Source: Pseudomonas phage HPP-Temi. From it: DNA of 64,000 nucleotides. The position numbers and the translations under genes were made by a program. Below the pieces are notes generated by a model that worked only from the letters and a program-made list of their open reading frames with translations, was not told where the DNA came from and searched no databases. The stretch lies in sequence record PP968062.1; one strand, given 5' to 3'. Below, piece by piece: positions 3,746-50,502 of this stretch; the first letter of the stretch is position 1; every line of letters begins with the position of its first letter.

Positions 3746-4226
3746 ATAAACCACGGATATTGCGAAGGATCTGACAACTAGCAATAATCTTACCACGAGA
3801 TACCTTAGAATGATATCCCTGAGATTCCAGATACTTCTTCGGATTCTCTTCTGCAAGGGCTTGCTCTAGAATGAATGTATCAATACCGTAATTAGCTAAT
3901 ACGAACTGTGCCACCTCATGATCCCACCGCTTAGCTACAGTGGAACTAGCCTTTAGATAAACCTGAGCCAGTTGCTCAGAATAACCTAAAGCTACTAACC
4001 ACGCAATTCGACCAGCAGCATAAATAAGTCTAGTGCGTGTATTCGATGGAACTGCTACGATATACCCTGTACCAGGGGATCTTTGTTCTTCTATTGTCCT
4101 GATGTTCCAGTCATCGATCATACGAGGAATCTGCGAGAGATCATCCCCTTTACCGAAGTAACCAATAGAGAATCCCTTGGCAACTTGAACGTCAATTTCA
4201 GCAGCAGTATTTTGACTAATAACCAT
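3738..4226 (-). CDS. hypothetical protein (162 aa)
   Basis: ORF in the minus-strand operon. No recognisable motifs. Confidence 0.45.
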   Translation of the reverse strand: MVISQNTAAEIDVQVAKGFSIGYFGKGDDLSQIPRMIDDWNIRTIEEQRSPGTGYIVAVPSNTRTRLIYAAGRIAWLVALGYSEQLAQVYLKASSTVAKRWDHEVAQFVLANYGIDTFILEQALAEENPKKYLESQGYHSKVSRGKIIASCQILRNIRGLSK

Positions 4227-4760: not shown

Positions 4761-5243
4761 TTAACTACGACGAACGTTGAAACCAGAGATATTTTGGCGA
4801 CGACCTTGACGACGTTTTTCAAAAGTTCGCATGGTTTGAATACCAGAGATAGTGGGTTCTGGTGATAACAGATCATGTACCAAACGACCTAGTAATTCTT
4901 TCTGCTCAGGAATGAATTCGAAGTGTTCATCTGGCGGTAACCCTTGCCGGGAACCTTCTAGCCAAGCACGATCGATTGGATGGGTAATGCCATTCAAACT
5001 ACCAAACTCTAGGAAAGGAATATCGGATGCATTAGCATTAAACTCAGCCGCCAACTGACATGCTTTGCTATGTGCGACGTATAACTTTACATCAGCTTCC
5101 CATTCCGTCATTTCACTCATGTGCCGAACTACAACTTCAACACCGAGATCCTTCAGGAAAGAAGTAACCTCAGCGTAATACTTTTCAGATAGCTCGACTT
5201 TACCAAACTTAGGGCTACCTTTGATGATGACTACTTTAACCAT
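4761..5243 (-). CDS. hypothetical protein (160 aa)
   Basis: ORF only. The N-terminus VKVVIIKGSPKF is not diagnostic. Confidence 0.4.
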   Translation of the reverse strand: MVKVVIIKGSPKFGKVELSEKYYAEVTSFLKDLGVEVVVRHMSEMTEWEADVKLYVAHSKACQLAAEFNANASDIPFLEFGSLNGITHPIDRAWLEGSRQGLPPDEHFEFIPEQKELLGRLVHDLLSPEPTISGIQTMRTFEKRRQGRRQNISGFNVRRS

Positions 5244-18787: not shown

Positions 18788-20440
18788 ATGAAGAAGGCTC
18801 TAGTCCCTTTCAACATTGACCTACTGATCCCCACAAAGGCTCAGCTTACAATGTTGGGGCAAGTAACTAGCCATGAGATCTTCGAAGGTACCGGTGGTAA
18901 CTTTCACGAGAAAGGTCTGTTCTCCGTAGAAATCTTCGGACGAATTGGATCCTCTGAACGTGAAGGTCGCTTCGGTTATATCAACATGGGTCTTGAAATT
19001 ATTCACCCGGTCATCTATCGTAACCTCATTAAGTTGAAGGCATTCTACGAAGATATCATCCTGGGTAAAGCTTTTGCTGTATTTGATCCGTCGATTAAAG
19101 ATTTCGTTCGTTCTAACGAGCTCGAAGGTAGAACTGGCTATGCCTTCTTCTTTGATAATTGGAAGAAGATCGACTTCGGTGAAACTAAGTCCTCTATTCG
19201 TCGTGTACGGGTTGAGCTGATGAAGAAGTACATGAGTAACTGTACCTTCAAGAACCTGCTCGTTATTCCCGCTGCATATCGTGAGGCCGAGATCGATGTT
19301 GATGGTCGTGTATCCATGGACGAGGTTAACGAACACTATCGTTACATGTTGAACCAGTCTTACGGTGTACCTGAATACTTCGGTCCCAATGATGACCTGA
19401 GCATTTATGACCGTAAACGGACTTCAATGCAGTTGACTGCTCTGGCGATCTATAACCACTACGAAAACCTGTTGTCTGGTAAAGGTGGATATATTCAACA
19501 GAAGTGGGCATCTCGACGTGTATTCAACGGTACTCGTAACGTTATCAGTTCGTTGGATACTAACGCAGCTGATCTCGACCAACCCAACCGTCCCAAGTTT
19601 AAAGATGCTGTAGTCGGTATTTATCAAGCAGCCGTATCGGTTAAGCCTAAAACTATTTATCATCTCCGGAATGGTGTTGTAGGTCAGGTATTCGACAGTC
19701 TGTCTAACCGTGTAGAACTGATAAACAAAAAGACCCTGAAACTTGAATGGGTTAACATCAGTAACGAAGAGATGGACCTTTGGGGTACACCAGAAGGTCT
19801 GGAACGTGTTATCGGTGAACTGAAGGTAATTGAGAAGCGGTCTCGTGCTATTGAGATCGGTGGTTATTACCTGGCTCTCGTGTACCTCGATGACAAACAG
19901 AACTTCAAGGTCTTCCGTGACATCACTGAAATGCCTAAGAATTTGGATCACAAATTCGTTCGTCCTATCTCTTATGCAGAGTTGATTTACCTGAGCGGAT
20001 TACCTATGTGGAAAAGAAACTCCGCATTCGTAACTCGTTATCCCGTTGAGAACTATAACAGTTCTATCCCTGTCAAGATGTACGTTAAGACCACCGTTAA
20101 AGGTGAGATGCGTTATCCACTGGGTTGGGATTGGGAACGTGATACCAATGCCGAAATCGCTCTTGAGTATCCGATCATCACTATCAACGAGCCTGCACAA
20201 TGGCACGACTCGACATCTATCTCTCCGTCCATTCTTGCTCCTCTTGACGCAGACTTCGACGGTGACACTGTGTCGTTCAACGCCGTGTATTCCAAAGAGG
20301 CAATTGAAGAATCTGATAAGTTCTTCAAATCTCGTCTAGCCTATATAAAGGCTGGTGGTGGTCTCGCATTCAGTGTCAACATCCACACGCTTAACCTAAC
20401 TCTCCGGTACATGACTGGGGAACCGAAAAGTAGGGATTAA
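18788..20440 (+). CDS. RNA polymerase beta-prime-like subunit, N-terminal part (550 aa), probably a virion RNAP subunit
   Basis: Catalytic motif LDADFDGD, compared with beta-prime NADFDGD. Upstream motif RRVFNGTRNVI, compared with beta-prime KRVDYSGRSVI. SD AAGAGGAAA upstream. Confidence 0.8.
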   Translation: MKKALVPFNIDLLIPTKAQLTMLGQVTSHEIFEGTGGNFHEKGLFSVEIFGRIGSSEREGRFGYINMGLEIIHPVIYRNLIKLKAFYEDIILGKAFAVFDPSIKDFVRSNELEGRTGYAFFFDNWKKIDFGETKSSIRRVRVELMKKYMSNCTFKNLLVIPAAYREAEIDVDGRVSMDEVNEHYRYMLNQSYGVPEYFGPNDDLSIYDRKRTSMQLTALAIYNHYENLLSGKGGYIQQKWASRRVFNGTRNVISSLDTNAADLDQPNRPKFKDAVVGIYQAAVSVKPKTIYHLRNGVVGQVFDSLSNRVELINKKTLKLEWVNISNEEMDLWGTPEGLERVIGELKVIEKRSRAIEIGGYYLALVYLDDKQNFKVFRDITEMPKNLDHKFVRPISYAELIYLSGLPMWKRNSAFVTRYPVENYNSSIPVKMYVKTTVKGEMRYPLGWDWERDTNAEIALEYPIITINEPAQWHDSTSISPSILAPLDADFDGDTVSFNAVYSKEAIEESDKFFKSRLAYIKAGGGLAFSVNIHTLNLTLRYMTGEPKSRD

Positions 20441-20442
20441 CC

Positions 20443-23400
20443 ATGCGTTTGAAAATTCATCAGTTTCTGAAGAACTACAGCCTTCGAAACTCCGGCGAAC
20501 TATTGCGTCCGCGTTTGTTCCCGTTAGCGAAGCTGGAACTGCCTCTTGAGGTAGTATATCAGTTCCTTGATGACAACGCTGCTGTAAAGGGTCCGAGTCA
20601 ATCGGACCCCCTCTTTGCCAAGCTGCAAGGAAAGGTGTTCATTGAGCACGTTACACAGCTGGAGACTCTTGATGGTAACGCTCGGCGTACTTCGCTTATT
20701 CCGACTACCCTTGAAGCAGACTTCCGTCGTCAGCACCGTTTCTTCAAACCACTGCGTAAAGATGCGGCTGTAAAGCTTAACACACAGAACGTTGCTGTAG
20801 TCAACTACAGCATGCTGAACCCGCTTTGGAAATACCAAGCCAACTTCAAGTCGAACTGGTATCGCTGGAGCAACAATACTGCTACCTTCTGGAAAGGTGT
20901 AGCAGATATGCATAAACGTTTCGGCTGGAACCAATTCATCGAACTCCATATCCCGGAATCCATTCCGACGTTTAACGAGTTCAAGATGTTGGAGCGTGGT
21001 ACCACTCAGGCATTGCTTGAGAAGTTCCGTACCAATGCAGCACTGAACGTTTTTGATCTGTATCGTTTCCTCGGTGAAAACCGTGCTTCTTCTTATCTGT
21101 CTACTTTGCCGAAAGAAGCATACGAGAAGATTAACTTCCTGATTCGTGTACAGAACAACTTCTTCGTTATTAACCTGGGTCAACTGGAACAATGGCGCGA
21201 TGCTCCGGAAGTTATTGCCGAGCAAGAAACTGTAGCCACTGAAAGCTTCGTTGATGAACTGGGTCTTGAAGTCTTCTATAAACCTGACGTATTACAACGT
21301 CGCATGATCAGCCTGTTGACTACTCTCGTTGAGTACAACAATGGTAACGATACTCTCATGGAGGTCGAACCAGAGGCACCTAAGATCACCGATATGGTTG
21401 AACCCGAAGACAAGTCCACTGACGAAGAAGAAGAAGCTGAAGAAGTTACTGAGCGTGCAGAAGAAGCTGAGGAAGGTGTCGATACAGATGCTATCGATGA
21501 TACATCCGAATCTGGTTCTAATGTTAGCTCCCTGCTTGACCTGGGTATGCTCGAAGTTGTATTTGAGCCGCCACCCGAGTCCGAGCTTGAGAAGACTACT
21601 CTTGTCATCGAGAAAGATCCGCTTGAGACAGCAGAAATTGCTAAAGCACCTACTCTCAAAGTAGAAACTGCTCCGGTAACTAAATCGATTATCCCAGCTT
21701 TCAGTAGCGGTGATGCGTTGGTTGATCCGGTTGGTCAGAAAGCTTATGACCTGTACCAAGTCGGTATGATCTCTGCCCGTGCATTTGAACAGGCTGTAGA
21801 TGACTCGGCTATGTATAAGTCTATTCCGGATCCGTTTGGTTCGGGTAAGACTATTGCAGAAGCAATGACATATGAAAAATCTGACTTCGTAATTCCATCT
21901 GAACAATTCGCTGACAAAACCACCATCACTGACAAGTCGATGCTGGGTGCAGTTCACAAAGCGATGATGCGCAAGTACACGAAGACTCTTCTACCGAAAG
22001 ACATCATGCAATCTATCCTGTCCATTCAGGCTCAGGGTGTAGCTGTTACTGATGTGCGTATGGAAGAAGTCCGTGATGCGATGAACCACTACCAATCGTT
22101 CACTGTTACTGTGAAACCGATTCGTGGTCGTCCTTCTCAACTGCGTTTCCGTATTCCGGTTATTGACCGGGATGGTCGTTTCCGTTCCAATGGTGTTACT
22201 TATCGTCAACGTCTGCAACGCGCGGATATTCCGATTCGTAAAGTCAACCCACTTAAGGTTGCACTCACCAGCTATTACAACAAGACTTTCGTAAATCGTT
22301 CTGAGCGTGCTGAGAACAACTACGATACTTGGCTGATCCGTCAGATCGGTGTACGTGCTCGTGATAACAATGACGTGTCGGTAACTGATGTACGTTATGC
22401 TGAACTGGACCAAGCTCAATTCGTTCTGCCTCGGGTATACTCTGCTCTGGGTCGTGCTTACCGTTCGTTCAAGAATGGTGCGAATGAGTTCTACTTCAAG
22501 TTCGACGATCATGCCGAGTACTTCCACAAGACCTACGGGATTTCCGTAGAAGCGCTTGAGAAGGATGGAATGGTTGTTGTGGGTTCCCATAACCGTCTAC
22601 CGATTTTGGTTGACCAAGGTTCTCAGTTCTACGTTAAAGAAGGTAACGATCTCGAACCGATGGGGACGATGATTGATATCCTGGGTCTGAACCAAGTGAA
22701 AGCTCCTCTGGAAGCAATCCTTGTTTCTGTGGCCAACAAAGAACTACCCCTCGGTTTCATCTTGGGTTATCGTCAAGGTCTGTCTGGTCTACTGGATACG
22801 CTTGGCGTTCAATATCAAAGTCATCCTCGTGGTACTCGTATTAGCGTTAGCCCCGATGACTACACTCTGGCATTCTCTGACGAGATCCTGGTGTTCAGTC
22901 GTCAAGACTACCGTGCTACTCTGGTACTCGCTGGCTTGAAGCGTTATCATCAATCTCTGAAGAAGTTCTCTCGTTGGGATTTCGATCGACGTGACGTCTA
23001 CTTCCGTCTACTAGAGGAAGCTGGTCTCTCTGCACGTTATACTCGTGAGATCGATGGCCTGTTTACTTCCTTCGTTGACCCGATCACTAAAGGTCTGCTT
23101 GAAGAGATGGGAGAGCCGACTGATTTCCAAGGTCTGCTATACCGCTCTGTAGAGCTGCTGACTAATGACTGGTCTCCTGCCGAGGTAGACGGTGCATACA
23201 TGCGCTATCGCGGCTATGAACGTATGGCTGGGGCTATCTATGGCAGTCTGAACCGTGCTGTTCGTATATACAACAACCGTGAAGGTTCTGCCGATCAACA
23301 GATCGTCATGGATCAACACGAAGTATGGCGTAAGATTGCATCTGACCCGACCGTTGCTACTATTGAAGACTCGAACCCTATCGCTAACTTGCGCGAGCAA

Positions 23401-23661
23401 GAAGCCATGACCTACCGTGGTGATGGTGGCCGTGGGCCGGACTCGATGGTTGCCCGTACACGTATCTATCACGAGTCTGATGTGGGCGTTGTATCTGAAT
23501 CTACTGTTGACTCTGGTGACGTGGGTGTAATTGCCTATCTGTCTCCTGATGCCAACTTCAACAGCATGCGTGGTACTACCCGTATGTTCGAGAAAGGCAA
23601 AGACGGTACGGCTAAGATGTTGTCTACTGGTGCACTCACTGGTGTAGCTACAACCAACGAT
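20443..23661 (+). CDS. RNA polymerase beta-like subunit, exon 1 (3' boundary approximate)
   Basis: Segment RGDGGRGPDSMVARTRIYHESDVGVVSESTVDSGDVGVIAYL aligns by eye to the conserved beta region GPGGL...[25 protein letters not shown]. The ORF would otherwise stop at TGA 23665-23667. Confidence 0.65.
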
Positions 23662-24003
23662 GATTGAGGTTATTGAATCGGAAAGTCTTTTCAGATTTGA
23701 GAAACCTTTGGTCCCAATGAATAGCGATATTCATTTGGAATCTCCCTTAATTGCTGGAACCTCCTTAGAGCTAATCTAACCACTGCGAGTCGAAAGACAA
23801 AGCCAAGGTTTGAAAATAGATTAGATTGGACAATCAGCAGCCAAGCTCCGTATAGGAGAAGGTTCAACGACTAACCGCTTATCACGGTGTACCTGCCAAG
23901 TGGTGGGGAAATAGGGAGCCTCTCAAGTAGAGGAAGATATAGTCTCCTCTTTAGGGAAACCTAAAGCAGTCGAAAGACGGAATTGATCTAACGAATCAAT
24001 TTG
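23662..24003 (+). ncRNA. group I self-splicing intron (IA-like), ORF-less, about 340 nt, inside the RNAP beta-like gene
   Basis: All four conserved core elements are in canonical order: P (aattgctggaac, about 23750), Q (aatcagcagcc, about 23832), R (ggttcaacgactaacc, about 23861) and S (aagatatagtctcc, about 23934). The GACTA/TAGTC pair forms P7. Both flanking ORFs are in frame 1. Exon 2 has no SD and no ATG. A possible P1 pairs exon CAACGAU with intron GGUUAUUG. Confidence 0.6.
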
Positions 24004-25152
24004 AAGACAAGGCCGAAACGTATCAACTTCGTTTCTATTCAGCAACAGCAAGGTATCTATGCAGACGGTTACGAGGTTACTCCTCTCCGTACTGGCTACG
24101 AGCAGATCATCGCTCAACGCACTAGCTCTATCTTCGCATCCGCTGCTGAACAAGATGGTGAAGTTATTGCTGTAGATGCTCACGGTATTACCGTCAAGTA
24201 TGCCGATGGGGAAATCTTCAGTTCTCAACTGGGTACCGTTCATGGTACCGCTGCGGGTGTAAACTATCCGCACACTCTGACCACTGGCCTTAAGAAAGGT
24301 GATAAGTTCAAACGTGGTGATACTCTGGCTTTCAATAGCAAGTATTTCACTGAGGACCGCTATACTCCTGGACAGGTTCTGTGGAAAGCAGGTGTGATGG
24401 TTCGTGTTGCATTCTGCGATAACCTTGACACGCTTGAAGACGGATCGGTAATCAGCCGTGACGTAGCGATCAAGCTGAATACTCAGACTACTGACATTAA
24501 GAACATCACTGTTCGCTTTGATCAGGCAATCGAGAATTTGGTCAAGGTTGGGGATCACGTAGACTTGGATTCAATTCTATGTACTATTCAAGACCCCGAA
24601 ATGGCCAAGAACTCTCTGTTTGGTGCCGCGAGTATTGAAACCCTGAAGAAACTTTCCGCTAACGCTCCGCGAGCGAAAGTTGTAGGGACTATCTCTAAGA
24701 TCGAATGTTACTATCATGGTGACATCGAAGATATGTCTGACAATCTTCAGAAGGTAGCTCGTGCTTCTGATAAAGAGAGAGCCGATAGGGCCAAGTCGTT
24801 GAACGAACCGGAATTCACTGGTGAAGTCGACGCATCCTTCCGTGTTAAAGGTCAGATGCTTGAACCTGACAACATGGTTATCCGAATCTACATCGACCAT
24901 GATATCCCTTGTGGTACTGGTGACAAAGGTGTAGTTGCGAACCAGATGAAAACTGTGTTCTCTCGGGTAATGGATGGTCGGAACGAGTGTGAAGATGGTA
25001 CTCCGATTGGTCTGATCTTCGGTAACACATCGGTCGAAGAACGGATGGTCATGTCCCCTAAATTGATTGCGACTACCACAATCTTGCAGCAAGCACTTTC
25101 TCAGCATATAGCTGCGCTCTATCGAGGAACCACAAATGCAAAATCAAAGTAA
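24004..25152 (+). CDS. RNA polymerase beta-like subunit, exon 2 (5' boundary approximate)
   Basis: GDKGVVANQM...EDGTPIGLIFGNTSVEERMVMSPKL aligns by eye to the beta active-site region GNKGVISKI...[23 protein letters not shown]. Confidence 0.65.
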   Translation, partial: KTRPKRINFVSIQQQQGIYADGYEVTPLRTGYEQIIAQRTSSIFASAAEQDGEVIAVDAHGITVKYADGEIFSSQLGTVHGTAAGVNYPHTLTTGLKKGDKFKRGDTLAFNSKYFTEDRYTPGQVLWKAGVMVRVAFCDNLDTLEDGSVISRDVAIKLNTQTTDIKNITVRFDQAIENLVKVGDHVDLDSILCTIQDPEMAKNSLFGAASIETLKKLSANAPRAKVVGTISKIECYYHGDIEDMSDNLQKVARASDKERADRAKSLNEPEFTGEVDASFRVKGQMLEPDNMVIRIYIDHDIPCGTGDKGVVANQMKTVFSRVMDGRNECEDGTPIGLIFGNTSVEERMVMSPKLIATTTILQQALSQHIAALYRGTTNAKSK

Positions 25153-46792: not shown

Positions 46793-48100
46793 TTAGGACA
46801 GTTCTTCTACGCTGGACTTAGCCACGACCATGTAGTTGACGTTCTTGAAGTAAGCGCTTGCATAGATCACGTTATCACGGATCATACGAGATACACCTTG
46901 AGGAACGGAACTATAACGAGTCATCCCTTCAGCTGCTTTTAACAGCTTCGAGAACAGCATCATCCATTCAATCGTTTCAGGCGAAGATTTGTTGATATCA
47001 CCAGTGTCATTAGTTACCAGTTGATAGTCTTTAAACTTCTGCGAGAATTGAGTGATGCCATTACGGTTCTGCGGGTTACCCAGCACAGAGAATGCAATGG
47101 ACTTGTAGGTGTTCGAAGAGAGTTCGAACTTGTTGTCTACGTAGGTCTGAGTATAACCAGGACCACGTGCAGTGCGACGGATCAGGGGCAGACGCTTGCG
47201 ATGGTCAACAGTAGGACTGTAAGTACCAGCACGATAGTCAGCTTGTTCGATGGAATACTGGTTCCAGAACGGAGTAAAGATGAACTCGGTCGTCATGAAC
47301 AGGTCAGGAAGAATAACTTCCCAGTCAGTCCGAGGATGAGTAGAGTCTTTCAGGAGTTCTTCAACGATCTTGTCCTTAATAAGGTCAGGGTTGTTACCTG
47401 CCTCACCATAGACGATCGCAATCCAGTAAGCCGGGAAACGCATGCTGTCATCACGAGGGTTGTGATATTCGAACATGAATGCCCGTTGATGGGTGTACGG
47501 ATACTGGGCACGCTTGGCTTGTACTTCCTCAATCTTTTCGACGAGGTCGTAATCAGCTAGCAACTGCTTAACGATAAGAGGGTCTTTGAAGAAGTCATCA
47601 AACGGAACGATCGGGTGAACGATCTCGATTACGTATTCATCGTACTGTGCTGCAAACGATTCGTCTGCAAGCCAAATGTTCATCTGGTTAGCTTCAGTGC
47701 CTACCAGTACGAACTCAACCCACTCGGGCATCCAGATACTACCGTTAGAGATCATTTGACCGCTACGGAAAGTCTTGATGACACCGTTGAATTCTGCCAT
47801 TACCAGCTGACGCAGTACGTTCGGATCAGAACCGATTGTACCAGCGATAGACTGCTGATAAATATATTCCCCAAGCTTCAGAACTTGATCTTTATTGTTA
47901 CCGGCAACATCAACGACGTTTCCATCCTTTACGCTATGAAAAGAAACAAAAACAACGTTTGGTGCGGACGTACCGGTGTGGAAAGTCTTGTCCTTTGCAT
48001 AGGTTGCGCTGTTCGACGAAAGTTCGCCGAGCTTCGCTACAGTTTCTGGGGCATTCGAAATGAGTGCAGGGAAACTATAAAAGCCTTTCAAATTGTACAT
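46793..48100 (-). CDS. hypothetical protein (435 aa)
   Basis: ORF. A divergent AT-rich region lies upstream. Confidence 0.55.
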   Translation of the reverse strand: MYNLKGFYSFPALISNAPETVAKLGELSSNSATYAKDKTFHTGTSAPNVVFVSFHSVKDGNVVDVAGNNKDQVLKLGEYIYQQSIAGTIGSDPNVLRQLVMAEFNGVIKTFRSGQMISNGSIWMPEWVEFVLVGTEANQMNIWLADESFAAQYDEYVIEIVHPIVPFDDFFKDPLIVKQLLADYDLVEKIEEVQAKRAQYPYTHQRAFMFEYHNPRDDSMRFPAYWIAIVYGEAGNNPDLIKDKIVEELLKDSTHPRTDWEVILPDLFMTTEFIFTPFWNQYSIEQADYRAGTYSPTVDHRKRLPLIRRTARGPGYTQTYVDNKFELSSNTYKSIAFSVLGNPQNRNGITQFSQKFKDYQLVTNDTGDINKSSPETIEWMMLFSKLLKAAEGMTRYSSVPQGVSRMIRDNVIYASAYFKNVNYMVVAKSSVEELS

Positions 48101-49056: not shown

Positions 49057-50502
49057 ATGTGCGACGGTATAGTGCTTTACACCGATGGATCATTCCGTCA
49101 GGGTCTAGCAGGTTGGGGAGTCCATGGTTACACTTACACCAACGATCCGATGAAATCGAAAGCCGCTACTAAACAGCAGCCTACGGCATCGGGTTATCAG
49201 GATGTCGGTGCCGAGGATACATGTACAGTTATTGAATATATCGACTCCTTCGGTAAGGTGGTCGATAATCCGACGAATAACACTGCTGAGCTTAGTGCTG
49301 CGATTAACGGCTTTATGATTGCCGATGCTTCTAAGGCAAACAAGCTGACCATGTTAATGGACAGTGAGTATGTTCGTAAGGGGCTTGAATCTTATCTTCC
49401 TAAATGGATTAAAAACAATTGGGTGAAGGTAGACGGTAATCCAGTAGCCAACAAAGATCTATGGATTGCTCTGAACCAGCAAAAAATGGACTGGCTTAAG
49501 AACGGCCGTAAACTGGAACTCAAGTGGGTTAAAGGCCACTCGGGAGATATGGGTAATGAGAAAGCCGATGTCAACGCACTTCGCGGAGGCGGTGCTTCGG
49601 TTACACCAAAAACAGTTAAAGTTGAAGGCGCAGCCATCAACAAGCTGAAGAAAGTTCAGATGAATCCACTGATCATGGAATCTCGTCTGCTCTTTGGAAT
49701 CAACAGTGGGAAACCCTCGGATGGGACCTACTACATGTACAACCTCGGAAGTATGCACAATGCTGGCCATCGTCCGCGGGATACAGCCAAAGACAAATTG
49801 GCAAAAGCAGACCTGCTACTTGGGAGAAGGATTTCCGAAGCGACCTTTGGAGTCTATAAATCTCGGGAACCAGACGAGTATTTAGAGAATCTAATTGAGC
49901 TACATACGAAAGCATTTGGGACTGACCTCCCAGAACTCGGTATTCTCAATCTGGGTAATGCTTGTGGAGCGAAACAGCGTCAACAAATCGAAAGCTTGGG
50001 ACTTGATGCTCTCATGCGCTTCGATGATATCTTCGTTCTTGCAACGCCAGATATGGGTCTCATTAGTAGGACTCTCAACCCACCCCGTATGGCTAACGAT
50101 GCGGTAAGCATGTTTAACGTGCTGGAACGTCGTCTGGCGGAATACACGGCGGGAACGATAGGAGAGTCGGTTCACAAAATCGACATTACCGACCATCTGT
50201 ACGAAACTGTACAATCCGGTAAGAAGACGGTTACTCAACTCAAGAAGTCTATCACCCAAAATACTCCACACCTTGATATTCCGATCGAGTACAAGGGACA
50301 GAAGGTTGCTGTTCGATTAGCATTGACAATTGACATTCCTTCCCGTAACCAGCTCGCTCGGATAAGTTGTGAGGGCATCAAGGTGGAAGTACTGATTGTG
50401 GCGACTGGACCGTTAGCCTATTCATACTCGACTGTGTTTGTAACTGATGATGGTTCTGCCATCTATGAAGCACCTTACACACAGTTCATTCTGAAAAAAT
50501 AG
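49057..50502 (+). CDS. RNase HI domain protein with a 300-aa C-terminal extension (481 aa)
   Basis: RNase H motifs TDGS, NNTAELSA, DSEYV and WVKGHSGDMGNEKADVNA. Confidence 0.75.
   Translation: MCDGIVLYTDGSFRQGLAGWGVHGYTYTNDPMKSKAATKQQPTASGYQDVGAEDTCTVIEYIDSFGKVVDNPTNNTAELSAAINGFMIADASKANKLTMLMDSEYVRKGLESYLPKWIKNNWVKVDGNPVANKDLWIALNQQKMDWLKNGRKLELKWVKGHSGDMGNEKADVNALRGGGASVTPKTVKVEGAAINKLKKVQMNPLIMESRLLFGINSGKPSDGTYYMYNLGSMHNAGHRPRDTAKDKLAKADLLLGRRISEATFGVYKSREPDEYLENLIELHTKAFGTDLPELGILNLGNACGAKQRQQIESLGLDALMRFDDIFVLATPDMGLISRTLNPPRMANDAVSMFNVLERRLAEYTAGTIGESVHKIDITDHLYETVQSGKKTVTQLKKSITQNTPHLDIPIEYKGQKVAVRLALTIDIPSRNQLARISCEGIKVEVLIVATGPLAYSYSTVFVTDDGSAIYEAPYTQFILKK

Follow-up and report, generated by a model that had tools for sequence, protein, structure and literature searches.

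Group I introns have already been annotated (phage 201phi2-1) or published (phage PhiPA3), with and without an endonuclease, at one exact site in the gene that encodes the beta subunit of the RNA polymerase packaged in the virion (vRNAP); according to the record annotations, this subunit is gp178 in phiKZ, gp211/209 in PhiPA3 and gp273/274 in 201phi2-1. The site, described for the gp210 intron of PhiPA3 (Birkholz 2024, PMC11620839), is the codon boundary right after two conserved aspartates (DD|) of the gp178 homologue. The gp210 endonuclease nicks the intron-less phiKZ gp178 as well as PhiPA3 sequence lacking the intron, and puts PhiPA3 at an advantage in competition (PMC11620839). For the 201phi2-1 intron, earlier proteomic evidence and two Oxford Nanopore Technologies (ONT) reads spliced exactly at the intron have been reported (PMC11512511), and in the record of this phage, gp273/274 is annotated as a join, with a mobile element as the interruption. 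In this study, the same site was found to be occupied in Pseudomonas phage HPP-Temi (PP968062.1), within a stretch of 64,000 nucleotides (nt) that was analysed as a whole and is referred to below as the window.

The segment 23665-24012 of the window is read here as a group I intron without an open reading frame (ORF), whose ordinary splicing would join position 23664 to 24013; we assign this reading a probability of about 0.92. A preliminary description, made by a model from the letters alone, had proposed a self-splicing-type group I intron in an RNA polymerase beta-like gene. The match to the Rfam intron model, the colinear frame obtained by joining the exons and the homologous introns present at the same site in other phages all speak for that proposal.

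The interrupted gene and its splice junctions

Judged by its homologues, the interrupted gene encodes the vRNAP beta subunit, the homologue of phiKZ gp178, of a phiKZ-like (chimallivirus) Pseudomonas jumbo phage. Two ORFs, 20443-23667 (1074 amino acids, aa) and 24001-25152 (383 aa, counted from a TTG), lie in a common frame, as had been stated in the preliminary description. Joining the two exons gives a 4362-nt ORF of 1453 aa, colinear with the homologues of phages HHBS36_1 and PA1C over all 1453 residues (about 94% aa identity), and in both of these phages the gene is one uninterrupted coding sequence of 4362 nt. Taken separately, exon 1 shares 92.6% aa identity with residues 1-1074 of the HHBS36_1 protein, and exon 2, starting at window position 24013, shares 96.6% with residues 1075-1454. 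Purifying selection acts on both exons (93-97% aa identity to clade mates vs about 83-86% nt identity).

The identity of the protein was also examined with more distant references. In the PHROG family phrog_3148 ('RNA polymerase beta subunit', 1424 positions), exon 1 corresponds to positions 2-1050 (E=0) and exon 2 to positions 1051-1423, the two matches being contiguous. A 477-residue piece spanning the junction aligned, in a search of Protein Data Bank (PDB) sequences, with residues 552-658 of Thermus aquaticus RpoB (E 3.5e-6), with NDD|PKRINFVSIQQQQ standing opposite HDDANRALMGSNMQTQ. The insert interrupts the most conserved motif of vRNAP beta (RpoB 'HDDANRALMG..NMQRQ'; here NDD-PKRINF...QQQQ). 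A Pfam scan of the joined protein returned no family, and neither did a scan of the gp180 homologue encoded upstream, which we ascribe to the divergence of such polymerases. The RNA polymerase beta identity put forward in the preliminary description is in agreement with the PHROG and RpoB alignments, Pfam being silent, and can be narrowed to the virion-packaged enzyme; the two checks named there, a scan with the Rfam Intron_gpI model and an alignment of the joined protein with RpoB, both came out in its favour.

Within the phage collection, the genomes most similar to the window are those of the P. aeruginosa jumbo phages HHBS36_1, phiHQ and BRkr (about 83% nt identity over 97% of a 24-kb query), after which PS119XW, phiLBG22 and PA1C rank in nt similarity. 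Uninterrupted relatives fix the intron boundaries at 23664|23665 and 24012|24013. The codons of the uninterrupted gene are AAC GAT GAC CCG AAA CGG, and those of the window are AAC GAT GAT | tgaggtt...acaagg | CCG AAA CGT. In HHBS36_1 and PA1C, the DNA that aligns with window segments 23000-23663 and 24013-24698 lies side by side, with only the C/T mismatch at base 23664 in between. Of the two 5' splice sites offered in the preliminary description, the uninterrupted relatives retain U23664 and discard U23661; the stretch that it gave as 330 nt without an ORF is indeed ORF-less, but the intron measures 348 nt rather than 330-342 nt.

The 3' splice site proposed earlier, G24003, has to be moved 9 nt downstream, to G24012, when the uninterrupted homologues are followed. 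Splicing at G24003 would leave the rest of the reading unchanged and give the junction GATGAT|AAGACAAGGCCG instead of GATGAT|CCGAAA, with three extra residues (K-T-R) between DD and PKR. This G lies two nt past the P9.2 hairpin, and joining 23664 to 24004 is in frame too. However, the uninterrupted proteins of HHBS36_1 and PA1C read DD-PKR with no extra residues, DNA homology resumes exactly at 24013, and the spliced junction to 24013 is contiguous in 63 phage records. In PhiPA3 and 201phi2-1, moreover, the counterpart of G24003 is a G inside the conserved 'UGAAGA' tail motif, which is not their splice site. We consider the use of G24003 very improbable.

Intron-bearing alleles with precise coordinates have T at position -1 (GAT) and G at the intron end, whereas HHBS36_1 and PA1C, clade mates without the intron, show the synonymous codon GAC (window base 23664 was compared with L004:5000, L129:9000, L001:3965 of PhiPA3 and L002:4821 of 201phi2-1; L numbers denote the compared sequences). 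The T at -1 could reflect selection for splicing competence or be a one-base mark of co-conversion. The introns of PhiPA3, 201phi2-1 and the uncultured contigs L007, L008, L068, L039, L011 and L111 likewise end in G.

The intron opens with UGA (23665-23667), which on the unspliced mRNA is read in frame as a stop and would release a 1074-aa product. Such a product would suit a gene that is truly split, with its halves made as separate, assembling polypeptides and the ribozyme irrelevant or inactive. RNA polymerases of phiKZ-like phages are built from split subunits, and annotation notes equate EL gp186 plus gp187 with phiKZ gp178. The second half is, however, poorly equipped for translation by itself. 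The only in-frame start near exon 2 is TTG 24001, with no ATG, no GTG and no purine-rich Shine-Dalgarno sequence upstream (the lack of ATG and Shine-Dalgarno had been pointed out in the preliminary description), and the next in-frame starts, 24394 and 24397, lie about 390 nt downstream of it. In addition, the ribozyme core is intact, and the break is located inside the subunit's most conserved motif, precisely where a known intron family homes (PMC11620839). A gene working as two separate polypeptides is thus given only a very small chance.

Open frames within the intron run to 59 codons at most, and stops occur in all six frames. Two minus-strand ORFs overlapping the intron and exon 2, 23923-24558 (211 aa, GTG start) and 23691-23867 (58 aa, TTG start), are most likely shadow ORFs of the conserved plus-strand gene or, for the 58-aa one, due to chance. 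Three other kinds of insert were considered and rejected: (i) a group II intron, as no Rfam group II hit was obtained in the window, (ii) an intein, given the stops in all six frames and UGA as the first codon, and (iii) translational bypass of a short coding gap, given that the insert has 348 nt and folds as a group I core.

In the group I intron reading, splicing would proceed as follows. The vRNAP beta gene would be transcribed as one pre-mRNA, in which the end of exon 1 (CGAUGAU) would pair with the guide GUUAUUG to form P1, with U23664 facing G23669. Bound at P7, an external guanosine would attack after U23664, the freed exon 1 would then attack after the terminal G24012, and ligation would join GAU GAU to CCG AAA (junction ...AACGATGAT|CCGAAACGT...) and restore the 1453-aa protein. 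In RNA left unspliced, translation would stop at the UGA that opens the intron. We infer that the intron could carry out these steps by itself in vitro. The annotation should accordingly be revised, with ORFs 20443-23667 and 24001-25152 becoming a single spliced gene, join(20443..23664, 24013..25152), for the 1453-aa vRNAP beta.

The ribozyme fold and its covariation

The group I core at 23665-24012 is real, far beyond chance. The Rfam model RF00028 (Intron_gpI) matches 23681-23966 on the plus strand with 70.5 bits (gathering score 50, E 7.3e-16) over model positions 1-253 of 253, and this is the sole Rfam hit above any gathering score in the 64-kb window. The four core strings named in the preliminary description, P (23749), Q (23832), R (23861) and S (23934), occur once each in the window and in the order P-Q-R-S, and GACUA and UAGUC pair as P7 in the way that it stated. 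In a manual model (Table 1), every helix from P1 to P9, together with P7.1 and P7.2, can be drawn with canonical pairs. The invariant sequences of P4, P7, J6/7 and J8/7 are present, and the pairing of P3, P4, P6, P7 and P8 is 100% canonical.

Pairing at the 5' splice site is of the expected form, with a U23664-G23669 wobble and a guide that is the only 7-bp candidate within the first 60 nt of the intron. The guide motif G-U(1-3)-AUUG is also found in PhiPA3 and 201phi2-1, where it pairs, by eye, with the conserved CGAUGAU with a one-nt bulge in each. Between P7 and the 3' strand of P3, the model contains the additional hairpins P7.1 and P7.2, which Michel and Westhof are said to have given in 1990 as the hallmark of subgroup IA. 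On the strength of these two hairpins in the model, the intron is placed in the subgroup IA type in the broad sense, covering IA1, IA2 and IA3. The textbook phage group I introns, those of T4 td, nrdB and sunY, belong to subgroup IA2. By description, they resemble the window intron in lying in phage protein genes, in being of type IA with P7.1/P7.2 and in occurring in ORF-bearing and ORF-less versions; their host genes are unrelated.

The fold was further examined by covariation in an alignment (MAFFT, P3 to P9) of 13 introns, comprising relatives (among them those of PhiPA3, 201phi2-1 and phiKZ gp56) and contigs of IMG/VR retrieved with the core pattern TTCAACGACTAA-N40-70-AAGATATAGTC. With a structure derived from one of the aligned sequences (the window intron) mapped onto the alignment, standard pairs were present in 89.9% of cells, as against 34-46% when the partners were slid by 1-3 columns, and the covariation score was 0.485 (at most 0.137 in the slid controls). 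Changes on both sides were seen in 39 of the 61 pairs. For four of the five measures, none of 500 shuffles came up to the observed value; for the fifth, further standard pair types, 14 did. The signal is carried by P3, P5a (both-side changes in all 8 of its pairs), P6a, P7.1, P7.2 and P8; in P7.1/P7.2, the compensatory series CCG/CGG, GGC/GCC, GAU/AUC is found. P4 and P7 are invariant and therefore uninformative for covariation, neither adding nor detracting. P9 covaries but is poorly aligned by MAFFT (60% of cells paired, an under-count), and P9.1 and P9.2 are drawn from the window sequence alone.

The core motif TTCAACGACTAA...AAGATATAGTC is very widespread, occurring in at least 120 IMG/VR stretches. 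A separate similarity search yielded 150 matching phage records, with hosts including Pseudomonas, Vibrio, Staphylococcus, Bacillus, Escherichia and Clostridium. The exact core pattern of the window intron was found only in 201phi2-1, PhiPA3 and two unrelated IMG/VR contigs.

Several observations weigh against an actively spliced intron. On inspection, no convincing complementarity for a P10 helix was seen between the P1 loop (UGAG) and the beginning of exon 2 (CCGAAA), and the P1 loop is unusually short (4 nt) and closed by a U-G pair; P10 is dispensable in many group I introns. The thermodynamic signal is modest (z = -2.7 for the minimum free energy, MFE), and the unconstrained MFE fold, which recovers P1, P2.1, P3-P6, P7.1, P7.2 and the P9 hairpins, departs from the ribozyme fold outside local hairpins. 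Finally, for the introns of the same ribozyme family that have been predicted in phiKZ, among them the one after gp56, ONT transcriptomics detected no spliced reads in the conditions of that study (PMC10914365), so that a good Rfam score is no guarantee of detectable splicing.

A rival reading is a splicing-dead, decayed relic carried by a defective or misassembled genome, and the absence of an endonuclease is a step in the usual decay of homing introns; in the cycle of Goddard and Burt, such introns lose their endonuclease as they decay. No core helix is disrupted, however, and the clear purifying selection on both exons is at odds with a relic, as is the essential nature of the host gene in phiKZ-type phages, whose vRNAP transcribes the early genes (PMC11620839, PMC10612078). 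We therefore judge a relic to be extremely improbable, and retain a functional group I intron as the preferred reading.

Table 1. Coordinates of the intron, its helices and the neighbouring coding segments in the window (helices from the manual model; percentages and both-side changes from the 13-intron alignment)
Feature	Position	Strand	Details
Group I intron, 348 nt, ORF-less	23665..24012	+	RF00028, 70.5 bits; bases missing from HHBS36_1 and PA1C DNA
Terminal guanosine (omega-G), 3' splice site	24012	+	Colinearity with uninterrupted genes; aligns with terminal G of PhiPA3 and 201phi2-1
Exon 1, vRNAP beta	20443..23664	+	aa 1-1074; ends T-T-N-D-D (GAT GAT)
Exon 2, vRNAP beta	24013..25152	+	aa 1075-1453 plus stop; begins P-K-R-I-N-F
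P1	23658..23675	+	Exon CGAUGAU 23658-23664 with guide GUUAUUG 23669-23675; loop UGAG
P2 hairpin	23682..23709	+	AAAG..UUUUCA / UGAGAA..CUUU; manual model, first hairpin of the Rfam alignment
P2.1 hairpin	23714..23738	+	10 bp, one bulged U, GCGA tetraloop; in MFE fold; conserved in PhiPA3 and 201phi2-1
P3 5' strand, CUCCC	23742..23746	+	With 23914-23918; 100% of cells paired, both-side changes in 4/5 pairs
P3 3' strand, GGGAG	23914..23918	+	With 23742-23746
P4 5' strand (element P)	23752..23757	+	With 23834-23839 (element Q); UGCUGG/UCAGCA; invariant 13/13
P5 plus extension	23762..23830	+	P5a 23771-78/23817-24; P5b 23779-81/23807-09; P5c 23789-98, GAAA tetraloop
P6/P6a hairpin	23841..23862	+	100% of cells paired; both-side changes in 5/6 pairs
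P7 5' strand, GACUA (element R)	23869..23873	+	With UAGUC 23940-23944; pseudoknot with P3; invariant 13/13
P7 3' strand, UAGUC (element S)	23940..23944	+	Manual model, alignment
P7.1 and P7.2	23874..23907	+	P7.1 23874-77/23885-88, P7.2 23892-97/23902-07; extra hairpins between P7 and P3'
P8 hairpin, CCUCU/AGAGG	23919..23933	+	100% of cells paired; both-side changes in 3/5 pairs
P9, P9.1 and P9.2	23949..24001	+	P9 23949-66 (GAAA loop), P9.1 23969-78 (GAAA loop), P9.2 23981-24001; manual model
gp180 homologue	18788-20440		Upstream ORF; record annotation and PHROG

Introns at the same site in other phages

The breaks in the PhiPA3 and 201phi2-1 genes were located by tblastn with the junction region. 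In PhiPA3 (L001), the break lies at 3965/5318, after the same two aspartates, and the 1352-nt insert includes gp210 and scores 67.8 bits with the Rfam model. Its ribozyme is the closest overall to that of the window (75% identity over 297 nt), and both introns have the P5 extension, P7.1/P7.2, P2.1 and the 3' tail motif. The main difference is found in P2, where the PhiPA3 intron bears the 330-aa HNH homing/nicking endonuclease gp210 and the window intron has a 28-nt hairpin.

In the gp273/274 gene of 201phi2-1 (NC_010821; L002), the break at 4821/5158 contains an ORF-less insert of 336 nt, with an Rfam score of 87.4 bits. Gene, codon boundary, guide motif and terminal G are as in the window, with the junction HDD|MKR in place of NDD|PKR. 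The two introns differ in that the P5a-c extension is wholly absent from that of 201phi2-1, in which the P2 region is longer, and outside the core they share about 55-70% identity. The 201phi2-1 host phage belongs to another genus, and its exons have 56% and 70% aa identity to those of the window. The J6/7-P7-P7.1 segment is identical (29/29) between the window intron and those of PhiPA3, 201phi2-1 and contig L007.

A further relative is present in phiKZ, after the endonuclease gene gp56 at the locus of gp55 of the non-virion RNA polymerase (nvRNAP). This intron (Rfam 75.6 bits) is of the same ribozyme family, TTCAACGACTAA...AAGATATAGTC, and its P5a-c and P6 segments are 85-87% identical to those of the window. 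It differs in its host gene and site, in carrying an endonuclease ORF and in a large insertion at P7.1/P7.2. The core (L003:3949-4270; AF399011, about 50168-50489) lies downstream of gp55, in a stretch without annotation that separates the gp56 ORF from the small ORF gp56.1.

The occupancy of the DD| site was surveyed with a 400-nt query representing the spliced junction, which matched 66 records of cultured phages. In 63 of these, one contiguous place covered at least 80% of the query, and the intron is therefore lacking there; these records include all six clade mates and phiKZ-like phages. The only interrupted genes among the 66 records were those of 201phi2-1 and PhiPA3. Within the HHBS36_1/PA1C-like clade, only the window thus has the site occupied, as the uninterrupted allele is present in all six of its nearest sequenced relatives.

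Among uncultured phages, exon pairs breaking at residue 1074/1075 were found in at least eight IMG/VR contigs (L007, L008, L068, L111, L054, L116, L039 and L011), the exons of which are only 31-59% identical to those of the window. ORFs homologous to gp210 (34-45% identity), starting about 60-70 nt into the intron, are present in five of them (L007, L008, L111, L068 and L054); in L068 and L054, the gp210-like frame is intact, spans about 250 aa and starts at a codon other than ATG. The inserts of L039 (355 nt) and L011 (444 nt), and probably that of L116, are ORF-less. From this distribution of sequences, the DD| site looks like an ancient, recurrent homing target.

Two observations were made on PhiPA3 itself. 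Four separate places of its genome (HQ630627) are similar to the window intron, which suggests that the intron with gp210 is probably accompanied by several related group I introns in PhiPA3. In addition, a CUCCAA...UUGGAG hairpin upstream of the gp210 start (L001:3966-4035) could, by eye, sequester the GGAGG Shine-Dalgarno sequence, and translational control of the intron endonuclease by this 5' hairpin is possible.

Lack of an endonuclease and possible origin of this copy

Searching the window with gp210 and gp56 (tblastn) revealed no homologue (best E 0.04), and neither a second copy of the intron nor a free-standing gp210/gp56-like endonuclease was found in the window. A homing endonuclease, as is borne by a mobile intron, is not encoded within the 348 nt, where the longest open frame has 59 codons. 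Lacking an endonuclease of the gp210 HNH type, the intron is presumably immobile by itself.

No co-conversion of the exon flanks toward a PhiPA3-like donor was found; the flanks are clade-like (CCG for Pro, not ATG) and only the -1 base differs. Since they resemble those of its own clade and not those of PhiPA3, there is no sign of a recent transfer from PhiPA3. The likeness of the intron to its relatives is segmental: P5a-c and P6 (23771-23862) come nearest to the intron after phiKZ gp56, whereas J6/7-P7-P7.1 (23863-23891) is the segment shared without change with PhiPA3, 201phi2-1 and L007.

For recognition by gp210, the critical bases are those of the codon for the second Asp, with which exon 1 ends (PMC11620839), and the window intron likely splits the recognition site of this endonuclease family. 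It may be speculated, although we hold it to be rather unlikely, that the intron is kept as a passive immunity allele, in which the split gp210 site shields the vRNAP gene from nicking by PhiPA3-like co-infectors, and that, as the segmental likeness would suggest, ribozyme modules are exchanged between introns in different RNA polymerase genes of co-infecting jumbo phages.

With HPP-Temi, a third lineage of Pseudomonas chimalliviruses has an occupied vRNAP intron site, the first in the HHBS36_1/PA1C-like clade. The window copy is the 'disarmed' form of an intron whose endonuclease has been shown to serve as a weapon when phages co-infect. Alongside the uncultured contigs, in which this site is occupied by inserts that have or lack a gp210-like ORF, it forms a natural series for studying how homing introns of nucleus-forming phages are gained and decay, and what protective value they may have. 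Splicing in such phages must proceed without coupled translation. Knowledge of group I introns themselves is left unchanged.

Elsewhere in the window, one tRNA gene was predicted with ARAGORN, a tRNA-Gly (GCC) at 47864-47944 on the minus strand.

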